A stretch of DNA of 37,154 bases from Promethearchaeota archaeon (GCA_048940925.1 JBHLOC010000045.1:1-37154), one strand, 5' to 3'. Shown: positions 1 through 37,154, counted from the first letter of the stretch. The notes: generated by a model from the sequence alone, not told the origin. Numbers and translations: made by a program.

Positions 1-142
1 TGGAATTCTTTGATATATTATGCGCTACTGAATGAAATGCAACTATTTCACCATCAAAATTCTCTTGAATCTCTATTACTCGATTAACAGCTCTAAAAGA
101 TTCCTCTGAATTATCAATACCTATTAAGATTTTTTTAAAAAT
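1..142 (-). CDS. Universal stress protein (UspA family), 3' end runs off the window; probable ATT start
   Basis: Manual translation gives (M)FKKILIGIDNSEESFRAVNRVIEIQENFDGEIVAFHSV, a typical USP N-terminus. An in-frame TGA lies three codons upstream. GAGGTGA SD at 155-149, then 6 nt, then ATT at 142-140. Confidence 0.85.
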   Translation of the reverse strand, partial: MFKKILIGIDNSEESFRAVNRVIEIQENFDGEIVAFHSVAHNISKNS

Positions 143-368
143 AGGTGTTCACCTCAAAAAATATCAACTTAGTTTGTATATTAATAACTTATGATTAATA
201 CTTAAACATATTTATAATAATTTTTAAATTACTTCGTTAGAATATATTATTCTAAAATCGATATCTATATTATTTTTAGAAATTAATATATTATAATTTA
301 AATCGAACAGATTTAAAATTAGTATATGCTTATAGAAAAATATTAGATGATTCTTAGAGATAATTCCT

Positions 369-5700: not shown

Positions 5701-5936
5701 GATATTCTATCTTTTTCTCTTTTTAAATAAAGATGTCTGCCGATTATTATATTGAAACCTTCCTTTTTAAATTTATTGCGTAAAAAACAGAAATTATCAT
5801 AAATATTGAATATCCTTCTAAAAATTACATGAAAAAATTTATTTAAGAGCAATTATTTAATAATTTTAATTAGTAGCAATTAGAATGCTAAAACTAAGGG
5901 TATTTTTTAAATATAACTTTAAGTGGTGAGTAAAAC

Positions 5937-6242
5937 ATACAAAAAGCGCGCATACGGTTATCCTCAACCCAATTAGACTCATTACAATCAGTATGCGGGC
6001 AAATAGAAAGTGTGTGTAAATCACAGGGTATAAGAAAAACTGGACCCATTCCACTCCCTACGAAAAGATTACGTGTACCTGTAATGAAAGCACCAAGTGG
6101 TCAAGGTACGAGTACTTGGGCAAAATATGAGATGCGAATCCATAAAAGGCTTTTTGAAATTATTGCTAATGAGCGTAGCATGCATCTCATTATGAAGATC
6201 CAGATTCCTGAATCTGTTTTAGTTGAAATTGAGCTGATGTAA
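5937..6242 (+). CDS. rpsJ: 30S ribosomal protein uS10; true start ATA at 5937 (101 aa)
   Basis: The frame extends upstream of the track call to (M)QKARIRLSSTQLDSLQSVCGQIESVCK...GPIPLPTKRL...YEMRIHKRL. In-frame TAA at 5931; GGTGAG SD at 5925-5930. Confidence 0.95.
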   Translation: MQKARIRLSSTQLDSLQSVCGQIESVCKSQGIRKTGPIPLPTKRLRVPVMKAPSGQGTSTWAKYEMRIHKRLFEIIANERSMHLIMKIQIPESVLVEIELM

Positions 6243-35496: not shown

Positions 35497-36243
35497 ATGA
35501 AAACGTATAATAGAATCCAAGACCACGGAGCTTCAATAAAAGGAAATAGTAGAGAAATTGCTCATTTATTCTATAATTTTAATAAAATACCACCCATTAT
35601 TGGCATGATAGTTGCTGATCAATTTGGAAATATACTAATGGTTATAGACTATGAAAACACACCTGAAGGAAAGTATGGCTCAATTAAATCGTATTTGTCT
35701 GGAAATAATGAGAATTTATTAGAGCTTGATCTCATTTCAATGTATTTTAGTTCATTTAAGGTATTCGCCGCACAAACTAATATCCAAAACTTATCGAATC
35801 TTGAGATTCATGGGTCTAATATTAAAGTTCAGCTATATTTCCCTCTCAACAAATATATCTTAATTATTTTCCTTCATTCTAAGGTAGATTTAAATCTAAA
35901 AGAAAAGGAGCAAATAGTTCAGTACTTTAAAGAGATCTTAACTAAATATAGCTATGAATTTCAACATTTCAATGCTTCTCCTTCAAGGAAGACTCTTAAA
36001 ATGTTGGAAAATAAAGGAAAAATATTCTTAAAGAGGTTGAATAGGACCTATATACAGGCATTTCACCATCATTATTTAAAGAAGCATCAAATTCTTGAAA
36101 TGTTAATGAGTAAAATCTCTCCTACCATTGAGGAAGTCTTAGCTGAATATTTAAAAGGAATTCCAAAGGATTTTATTAATGACATGTCAAGAGAATTAAA
36201 GAACAAGATACACGATAAAATGTGTGATTTCAAAATATCTTAA
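35497..36243 (+). CDS. Longin/roadblock-like domain protein with a helical C-terminus
   Basis: IIGMIVADQFGNILM; DLISMYFSSF..FA; NLEIHG.NIK....; YILIIF: beta-beta-alpha-beta-beta-beta-alpha pattern. Confidence 0.6.
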   Translation: MKTYNRIQDHGASIKGNSREIAHLFYNFNKIPPIIGMIVADQFGNILMVIDYENTPEGKYGSIKSYLSGNNENLLELDLISMYFSSFKVFAAQTNIQNLSNLEIHGSNIKVQLYFPLNKYILIIFLHSKVDLNLKEKEQIVQYFKEILTKYSYEFQHFNASPSRKTLKMLENKGKIFLKRLNRTYIQAFHHHYLKKHQILEMLMSKISPTIEEVLAEYLKGIPKDFINDMSRELKNKIHDKMCDFKIS

Positions 36244-36267
36244 TTCATCTTCTTATGGTGGCGAAGT

Positions 36268-37154
36268 ATACTCTATTATATTTCTAACTGGCGTTTTAGA
36301 AACTATTCAACTATAAAGAAAGTTAATCCATTTAAGACATGCAAATTTTATCGATTGAAGTATAGTAATAACACTCTCTTTTTTCACCTTGATAATAATT
36401 TACTGTTTTCGTTAAGACATTTTAATCTAAATTTTGCTACTCATCCAAGCATGATGTATCTTGATAAGTTTGTGAGAGCTTTGAACAGTCATAAAATTCC
36501 CTTTATTTATACCATTAATGCAGTTCCCATCTCTTATTCCCTTTTTTGCTCTGAATGTGCTAAATATTTAAATTTAAAAACTGAAGAAGCCCTCAAAGGG
36601 ATCGTTTTTATAATATATGATGATCCGAAGCCTAGATATATAAAATATCCTCGAGAAGAATTTCAAAATTGGTTAAATATGAGAACAGGAATCTGGAAAA
36701 CGACGCTGAGTGTCTCCACAGCTGCATATAAAGTTGCTAAAAGATTAAAATATAATGATTTTCTTGAGTTAAACGAGCATATTGCTATGAAATCTAAAGT
36801 ATTATTAAATTCCTTTGAAGAGAATTTTATAACCTTGAAGCTTAAATGCCTTATAAATCAACTATTAGTTTCAGGATTCCTAAGTGAGTGTTTCAAAAAT
36901 ACTGTGTTTCGTTTAAATGGCACTCAATTAAATTATCTTTACTTTCAAGGGAAAACATTACATGAACTCGTAAAAGTTGCAAATGAGTTTAAAAAAGGAA
37001 TAGATACTCGAATCGCTGCCGAGTTTAACACGCCCACCCAATTGGATAATAGTATTGTAATAGGAAAGACGATAAATACAGAATTCTTAGAAGAAGAAAG
37101 TCCCTTAGGTTTTACTTTTGATCAATTAAAGCAATTATTTATAACAAATGGTAT
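36268..37154 (+). CDS. Partial large hypothetical protein (runs off the window); start uncertain (ATA 36268, TTG 36355 or ATG 36451)
   Basis: Frame open from 36244 to the window end (~300 codons). Absent from the ORF track because it lacks a stop. Confidence 0.75.
   Translation, partial: MLYYISNWRFRNYSTIKKVNPFKTCKFYRLKYSNNTLFFHLDNNLLFSLRHFNLNFATHPSMMYLDKFVRALNSHKIPFIYTINAVPISYSLFCSECAKYLNLKTEEALKGIVFIIYDDPKPRYIKYPREEFQNWLNMRTGIWKTTLSVSTAAYKVAKRLKYNDFLELNEHIAMKSKVLLNSFEENFITLKLKCLINQLLVSGFLSECFKNTVFRLNGTQLNYLYFQGKTLHELVKVANEFKKGIDTRIAAEFNTPTQLDNSIVIGKTINTEFLEEESPLGFTFDQLKQLFITNG

Follow-up and report, generated by a model that had tools for sequence, protein, structure and literature searches.

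The uS10 Locus

The window is the whole 37,154-nucleotide stretch of Promethearchaeota archaeon DNA that we analyzed, from an AT-rich, Loki-type member of the Asgard group. Its plus strand carries the gene for ribosomal protein uS10 (rps10), together with the following elements.

5832–5857, plus strand: distal block AAAAAATTTATTTAA..., which is likely the BRE/TATA promoter for uS10, with columns invariant across 20 same-genus loci
5906–5913, plus strand: proximal TTTAAATA, TATA-like but probably not the promoter, centered 26–27 nt before the ATA
5925–5930, plus strand: Shine–Dalgarno (SD) sequence GGTGA(G), complementary to the 16S rRNA 3′ end ...GGAUCACCUCCU, with GGTGA 7 nt before the start codon
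5931–5933, plus strand: in-frame TAA two codons 5′ of the start, ruling out an in-frame upstream start
5937–5939, plus strand: ATA, the probable start codon of rps10, aligned with the ATG, GTG, or TTG of relatives at MQKARIRL
5937–6242, plus strand: uS10 coding sequence from the ORF map, 101 codons plus stop, single copy (PF00338, E = 3.7e-26)
5949–5955 (+13 to +19), plus strand: CGCAUAC, 5′ arm of a possible, unproven hairpin seen in minimum free energy (MFE) folds
5991–5997, plus strand: GUAUGCG, 3′ arm of the possible hairpin, pairing with 5949–5955

GGTGAG (5925–5930) is followed by TAAAAC (5931–5936), ATA (5937–5939), and then CAA AAA GCG CGC ATA CGG TTA. The frame of this ATA translates as IQKARIRLSST..., spans 101 codons, and ends with a TAA stop at 6240–6242. 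Residues 5–99 cover positions 1–98 of the 98-position Pfam Ribosomal_S10 profile (PF00338), scoring 91.7 bits against a cut-off of 21.2. Because the TAA at 5931–5933 is in frame with uS10, an upstream start is impossible. In the ORF map, the next in-frame ATG, GTG, or TTG is the GTG at 6012, which is codon 26; a start there would cost a quarter of the Ribosomal_S10 domain. The gene has the functional marks of a housekeeping gene, being single copy and under purifying selection. A search of its own genome (4.82 Mb, 90 contigs, 29.6% GC) for a second uS10 copy returned none. Since its neighbors both lie on the opposite strand in the ORF map, it is monocistronic.

A preliminary description of this DNA had proposed that uS10 initiates at the ATA, with the upstream TAA blocking other starts. 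The sequence itself, the complete S10 domain, and the position of the first NTG at codon 26 all uphold that proposal, and we regard ATA 5937–5939 as very probably the start codon. Only slightly less firm is the complete reading that we favor, in which a leadered mRNA would have its AUA start placed by the SD. Canonical archaeal rps10 encodes MQKARIRL... from an ATG and usually lies downstream of tuf. The Lokiarchaeial uS10 is the same protein with the same N-terminus, but the gene described here is solitary between opposite-strand genes, with an SD leader of its own and an apparent ATA start.

Probable Ile-Codon Starts behind SD Sequences across the Genome

The 16S rRNA 3′ end of this genome was found to read ...GGATCACCTCCT, which makes GGTGA a genuine SD core. 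In long ORFs, the frequency of G ahead of the first ATG rises to 0.20–0.25 at −12 to −8, against a background of about 0.09–0.10, and the first G of GGTGA before ATG starts peaks at −12/−11 genome-wide. SD-type motifs are present in only a minority of the genes of this genome, and SDs have been described as not prevalent in another Lokiarchaeon (PMC7531240).

We scanned the genome without recourse to annotation. For each SD 5-mer of GGAGGTGAT, we noted which codon lies at distance d, counted from the first G of GGTGA, provided that at least 100 sense codons followed and that no in-frame NTG occurred back to the previous stop or in the next 15 codons. At d = 11, the codons were ATG (77), TTG (34), ATA (19), ATT (15), ATC (10), GTG (5), and ACG (3), and the control codons were AAA (0), AAT (0), TTA (0), and TTT (2). 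ATA, ATT, and ATC (collectively ATH) thus account for 44 cases, versus 0–2 for each other AT-rich codon, and each of the three stands at 0–8 when d is 15–30. With 4-mer SDs, the scan gave 64 ATH codons at d = 11 versus 0–6 for control codons. After frame-matched background subtraction, the ATH excess comes to about 50–80 genes, or at least 1–2% of all genes and about 15% of those strongly led by an SD. Weak codons keep to a narrower spacing: d = 11 holds half of the ATH cases, 41% of TTG, and 26% of ATG. Raw trinucleotide counts after every GGTGA, taken without ORF context, gave no start signal; they are uninformative because most GGTGA occurrences are coding GGT-GAx.

All 19 ATA candidates at d = 11, unselected, were then compared with Pfam. 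A match was obtained for 17 of the 19, and in 13 of the 19, the domain begins (profile position 1–4) upstream of the first NTG. The 13 domains are GFO_IDH_MocA, Ras, DUF371, profilin, tRNA_bind, polyprenyl synthetase, CoA_binding, NTP_transf_3, AFOR_N, BcrAD_BadFG, SCP2, DUF3592, and Robl_LC7. A second species of the genus (0.8 Mb scanned) shows an ATH peak equally strong per Mb. In a genome from another family that has ATG at uS10 (1.6 Mb), ATH starts number 11 versus 96 for ATG, compared with 70 versus 294 in the genome studied here, so that they are about half as frequent. Alignment of SD-led starts between this genome and a congener reveals swaps of ATA to ATT, ATA to ATG, ATC to ATA, and ATG to TTG or GTG. 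Recurrent SD-guided ATA and ATT starts, as the preliminary description had suspected, are therefore borne out genome-wide by a codon- and distance-specific excess, by Pfam in 13 of 19 cases, and by orthologous swaps. Its further statement that GTG and TTG starts are common holds for TTG (83 SD-led genes) but not for GTG, which is rare (24), with ATG at 290. As individual examples, 1395, 12538, and 13351 are plausible; an SD precedes two of them at the customary spacing, and Pfam fits 12538.

A few other codons were seen at the start position. ACG occurs behind GGTGA in 5 cases at an SD distance of 11–12, where the background is near 0, and there is also one CTG (loci in this genome include C56:54439, C55:59277, C58:58980, and C41:211859, all on the plus strand). 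One ACG candidate precedes a Rossmann-type KVGIIGCGGIA N-terminus. Thr and Leu near-cognate starts may also serve here.

Individual Genes with Apparent Ile-Codon Starts

An ATT start had been suggested for a universal stress protein (USP) gene within the window, and this suggestion stands.

140–155, minus strand: GAGGTGA (155–149), 6 nt (ACACCT), and ATT (142–140) of the universal stress protein gene, which is cut by the contig end

The SD contains an in-frame TGA, and residues 2–42 align with positions 2–42 of the Pfam Usp profile. A near-identical full copy of the gene on another contig (C84) is entry c74 of the genome-wide candidate list.

The genome contains two aIF1/SUI1 genes, C31:2212–2526 (plus strand; L051:1426–1743) and C58:42821–43135 (minus strand; L052). 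Both lack an ATG before the zinc knuckle and read ATT-AAA-(acidic ×3)-ATT-TGY-CC behind GTGAT or GAGGTGAT. The ATT, with the fixed leader AAGGTTGTGATAAGAGAGY, is found in 22 of 22 genomes of the genus; in other genera, the aIF1 start is ATA, GTG, or TTG, and ATG occurs in 0 of 29 readable loci of the order. Both genes of this genome appear to start at ATT, an arrangement that looks like the infC-style self-limitation of a start-codon fidelity factor. The preliminary description had pointed to aIF1 and the initiator tRNA as places to look. The former is, by all appearances, ATT-started in both copies, and the latter looks normal, with A1:U72, a GGG/CCC anticodon stem, and a CAU anticodon. Among the 34 tRNAs found in the draft genome, no initiator-like tRNA with a UAU anticodon was seen, a weak negative given so small a set.

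The start of uL16/L10e (C41:83741–84370, plus strand; L050:91–720) is an ATC behind AGGTG. At the aligned codon, 24 genus genomes have ATC (7), ATG (12), GTG (2), or TTG (3), always followed by Ala-His/Asn-Lys-Arg-Pro-Trp. To judge from this alignment, the uL16 codon has the look of a start whose identity is nearly neutral.

Two cytoskeletal-type genes were also observed. A profilin-like gene on contig C40 (minus strand, approximately 170304–170675; L037) has a putative ATA start, a Pfam Profilin match at 6–104, and no NTG until codon 59. For an actin-like gene at C7:31497 (plus strand), the start seems to be ATT.

Conservation of the uS10 Start Codon

ATA stands at the aligned uS10 codon in all 20 same-genus genomes with a match, each with a GGTGA-like sequence 6–7 nt upstream. 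We extended the comparison to GTDB, with one genome per species, which gave 80 loci with a uS10 at least 83% identical, nearly all from Promethearchaeota or other Asgard-named metagenome-assembled genomes (MAGs). At the one aligned codon, these species have ATA (44), ATG (20), TTG (7), GTG (7), or ATT (2). Other families of the order mostly have ATG there, with a single GTG and a single ATT, and two relatives in such families have an ATG one or two codons upstream. A stop precedes any NTG in 43 of the 44 ATA species and lies exactly two codons upstream in 25 of the 44. Contigs from three other public runs (two studies), none of them flagged as a possible source of the DNA of the window, cover 5937–5939 without difference, and contigs of relatives in a fourth run likewise show no difference at the uS10 start codon. 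The sister genomes and the contigs of other runs thus agree with the ATA read here, and in these alignments, both the ATA and the SD of uS10 are conserved across more than 60 species.

The pattern of change along the gene was examined on a gene tree of 47 ATA/ATT uS10 sequences (45 ATA and 2 ATT). Synonymous changes reach 10–22 per codon while amino acids are kept. At codons 4 and 7–11, the amino acid is retained in 47 of 47 sequences despite 10–17 synonymous changes each. Since codons 2–11 retain their amino acids through so many synonymous changes, the N-terminal stretch is translated and under purifying selection, starting at the ATA. The third base of the start ATA itself changed twice on the tree, versus 7–17 times at nine of ten internal Ile codons. 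Codons 2, 3, 5, and 6 are also unusually constant; codons 3 and 6 likewise changed only twice, and codons 2, 3, and 6 are almost fixed as A-ending forms.

This stability can be read in more than one way. One reading is that the ATA works without any special role: start choice would be relaxed behind strong SDs, AT-biased mutation would turn ATG into ATA, and the result would persist as nearly neutral. The genome-wide frequency of ATH starts, the drift of start codons between species in other genes, and the low GC content of the genome (29.6%), together with the near-fixed A-ending codons 2, 3, and 6, are all consistent with such a history. Against it, the uS10 ATA shows only its two changes in 47 diverged sequences whose synonymous sites changed 7–22 times, no reversion to ATG occurs within the ATA cluster, the uL16 start flips freely in the same genomes, and the aIF1 ATT is equally rigid, in 22 of 22 genomes. 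We consider the neutral reading a serious contender that falls somewhat short of even odds. That the uS10 ATA has changed so much less than internal Ile codons and the uL16 start of the same genomes argues for its having been kept by selection as such, beyond drift. A-biased mutation and a broader synonymous constraint on codons 1–6 could nonetheless account for part of the third-base stability, and the constraint may span the whole uS10 initiation region rather than the start triplet alone. The unusual evolutionary stability of the ATA suggests a regulatory role without proving one, and a specific regulatory role has, in our estimate, somewhat less than an even chance.

Likely Promoter and Leader of the uS10 mRNA

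In an alignment of 20 genus loci, the distal block at 5832–5857 is the only strongly conserved upstream element besides the SD; the region between the two varies in both sequence and length. One species (G014) has lost TTTAAATA while retaining the SD and the ATA. Because of this deletion and of the invariance of the distal block, we read the latter as the likely promoter and the uS10 mRNA as likely leadered, with a leader of about 30–70 nt that includes the SD. The first G of GGTGA in uS10 is at −12, the genome-wide peak position. Of the 44 ATA-start species, 40 have GGTG at −12 and 3 have it at −11 (43 of 44). An SD 4-mer at −22 to −4 (19 nt ending 3 nt before the start) is present in 0 of 20 ATG-start uS10 genes and 58 of 61 with non-ATG starts, a descriptive association rather than a sign test, as it is phylogenetically clustered and amounts to 1–3 independent contrasts. 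ATG going without an SD and non-AUG codons with one suggests that, in the uS10 family, the mode of initiation switched, which would be more than a point change. We also observed that the ATG-start uS10 clade of 18 species (L236, L241–L251, and others) shares a conserved, A-rich leader, ..CAATTAAAAAAAGTTTAAAAA-ATG, that lacks an SD and has TTTTAATAATTT about 40 nt upstream. From this layout, the uS10 mRNA of that clade would seem to be leaderless or to have a very short leader, and the change of start codon appears to have gone along with a change of initiation mode.

These comparisons bear on the possibility that the uS10 mRNA is itself leaderless, beginning at or next to the ATA and driven by TTTAAATA, with GGTGA as a promoter-proximal element rather than an SD. 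TTTAAATA is centered 26–27 nt before A5937, which is the usual archaeal TATA-to-start distance, and many genes here seem to lack an SD, in keeping with the report on another Lokiarchaeon (PMC7531240). We judge this account improbable. The G014 deletion leaves the SD and the ATA in place while the distal block is invariant, GGTGA sits exactly at the SD optimum of the genome, and the uS10 relatives without an SD are the very ones that start at ATG. A leaderless mRNA, moreover, would not carry a conserved SD, and leaderless initiation is the mode that tolerates non-AUG codons least. Statistics on TATA-box position did not discriminate leadered from leaderless genes in this 30% GC genome.

Still less probable are two accounts that move the start to a GTG. 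The first would begin at the GTG inside the SD (5926–5928), in another frame, and reach the uS10 frame by a −1 shift on C-AAA-AAG, or else the A run would have been miscounted, giving MSKTYKKARIRL. In its favor, no stop interrupts the GTG frame in this genome, and CAAAAAG looks like a slippery heptamer. This GTG lacks a separate SD, however, and we rejected this route because one species with a different SD-to-ATA spacing places the GTG in another frame and because several species (including G006) have CAGAAAG, in which the slippery run is destroyed. The second account, in which uS10 is a truncated 76-residue protein from the internal GTG at 6012 or a decaying pseudogene, is what callers restricted to ATG, GTG, and TTG would predict, and forms of 76, 89, and 94 residues are present in public protein sets. 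It is equally hard to sustain, as this is the sole uS10 gene, purifying selection on codons 2–25 is strong and synonymous changes there are many, and the Pfam domain needs residues 5–99. A-to-I editing of AUA to AUI was dropped on reasoning alone, as it cannot account for ATT and ATC starts. Finally, the idea that the organism truly has ATG, and that the ATA is a one-base sequencing or assembly error in a metagenome-assembled genome, was rejected as extremely improbable, since ATA recurs in all 20 genus genomes with a match, in 44 further species sampled by many studies, and in the contigs of three other runs.

RNA Structure around the uS10 Start

The candidate stem formed by 5949–5955 and 5991–5997, whose 5′ arm falls in the rare GC-rich codons CGC-ATA-CGG, forms in the MFE folds obtained for two species, which leave the SD and ATA single-stranded (ΔG of −15.9 and −19.3 kcal/mol; z of −1.5 and −1.8). 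All 7 bp are found in 36 of the 45 sequences that start with ATA, versus 0 of 34 with ATG, GTG, or TTG starts. No compensatory changes or covariation were found in this stem, and RNAalifold gave no consensus structure for −30 to +66 of uS10. The hairpin might help a weak ATA start, and we treat it as a lead only. Ribosomal-protein feedback of the classical kind works through a conserved structured leader that mimics an rRNA binding site; uS10 shows no such leader, and classical feedback on its mRNA is without support from conserved leader structure.

Proposed Mechanism and Comparison with Known Systems

In the reading that we favor, the leadered, monocistronic uS10 transcript would pair through GGUGA with the 16S rRNA 3′ end (..UCACC..), and this pairing would bring AUA 5937 into the small-subunit P site. 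Decoding of the AUA most likely falls to the normal initiator Met-tRNA, whose CAU anticodon mispairs with the last base of the codon, giving MQKARIRL.... Yield from the AUA is expected to be below that from AUG and to depend on the fidelity factor aIF1, itself apparently started at AUU, and the uS10 AUA may have been selected as a throttle or sensor of initiation stringency. A weak start nevertheless sits oddly with an abundantly needed ribosomal protein, unless AUA is efficient in this context.

The literature offers values on either side. Bacterial AUU and AUA starts stand behind strong or extended SDs in E. coli infC and pcnB (AUU) and in S. aureus infC, ccpN, and citZ (AUA) and cvfC1 (AUU), and those of S. 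aureus behind extended SDs reach about 10–30% of AUG (PMC13009471). An AUA mRNA with an optimized initiation region performed like an AUG mRNA in E. coli extracts (PMC5499595); in vivo, in another context, noncanonical codons gave 0.01–2% of AUG (10.1101/063800). A review lists AUG, GUG, and UUG as the start codons of archaea (PMC7531240). Our literature search found no papers on ATA, ATT, or ATC starts in Asgard archaea, most subscription journals being outside its reach.

SD-guided near-cognate initiation is therefore a known kind of mechanism. As in the bacterial examples, an Ile codon stands at the start without a canonical alternative, the SD is strong and the spacing tight, both are conserved across species, and initiator Met-tRNA presumably begins the protein, with a yield that is reduced or conditional. 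Unlike them, the present case, known from sequence, concerns an archaeon with eukaryote-type aIF1, aIF1A, and aIF2 and no IF3, and it involves about 50–80 or more genes rather than two to four, including an essential ribosomal protein. Judged from these comparisons, what is new is the domain of life, the scale, an essential ribosomal protein with its ATA frozen across dozens of species, and the parallel ATT of aIF1.

Autoregulation of infC (IF3) runs through its own AUU/AUA start. We know of no role for uS10 in start-codon proofreading, whereas aIF1 has one, and no feedback partner of uS10 is known to us. Eukaryotic eIF1 and eIF5 autoregulate through start-site stringency (PMC3326321). The genes discussed here resemble these cases in that the genes of the fidelity factor itself have an apparent weak start, ATT, and differ in that the parallel to infC concerns aIF1 rather than uS10 and that the feedback is read from sequence. 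As the aIF1 genes apparently start at ATT, the analogy fits aIF1 better than uS10. The preliminary description had offered relaxed start selection or infC-like autoregulation of uS10; the relaxed, SD-guided starts are sustained by our data, and autoregulation of uS10 finds no conserved leader structure on its side.

A bolder possibility, which we think rather unlikely on present comparisons, is a graded start-codon system in which AUA, AUU, and AUC are combined with an optimal SD and their yield is set by aIF1. Here aIF1 would limit itself through its fixed AUU as IF3 does, and the AUA of uS10, possibly aided by the hairpin, would tie small-subunit production to stringency. Were this true, graded starts would represent, in the archaea closest to eukaryotes, a prokaryotic precursor of eIF1-type stringency control. 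Independently of that proposal, Ile codons starting about 15% of strongly SD-led genes offer a natural system for questions about aIF1/aIF2-type stringency. The lineage contrasts with the AUG/GUG/UUG rule for archaea, and the genes concerned seem to include an essential ribosomal protein and a fidelity factor.

Consequences for Annotation

NCBI translation table 11 allows initiation at ATT, ATC, and ATA. The NCBI pipeline annotates a uS10 of 101 residues with the ATA read as Met, while other pipelines have left shortened forms of 94, 89, and 76 residues in public protein sets. The expectation that gene callers truncate ATH-started genes is thus met by those other pipelines and not by NCBI. The 101-residue uS10 of the clade in GenBank, with Met written for ATA, is in line with table 11 and the homology-guided calls of PGAP; the parallel is one of annotation outcome only, as we found no description in the literature of the ATH habit, its extent, or its link to SDs.

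Callers limited to ATG, GTG, and TTG truncate or miss ATH-started genes, which matters because Asgard genomes are mined for eukaryote-like proteins, and cloning of such genes would take the wrong N-terminus. To judge from their sequences, profilin-like and actin-like proteins, small GTPases, roadblock proteins, uL16, uS10, and aIF1 all seem to have an ATA, ATT, or ATC start here.

Additional Observations

One further site had been put forward as a possible ATA start, at 36268, and was rejected as a third example.

36257–36270, plus strand: GGTGG, 6 nt, and ATA, not a start; GGTGG encodes the conserved WW of a WWR motif

GGTGG here codes for Trp-Trp inside a paralogous family of about 1280 residues. 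At 17 homologous loci, the reading frame is uninterrupted, and the protein extends about 350 residues upstream of the WWR motif. The segment at 35497–37152 (plus strand) is a member of this multicopy family, which has 17 homologous loci in the genus; its 3′ end is cut by the contig end, and no Pfam match was obtained for its protein. The family is laid out as an N-terminal YLxIWxVNPSFKDI region, a transmembrane segment, and WWR. In the copy at 35497–37152, an in-frame TAA at 36241–36243 lies 9 codons upstream of the motif at the 36268 site, and the 248 upstream codons are unrelated to the N-terminus of the family, which suggests either a rearranged copy or a pseudogene.

Elsewhere in the genome, a tRNA-Sec with anticodon TCA is predicted at C3:50049–50141, and this archaeon probably uses selenocysteine.
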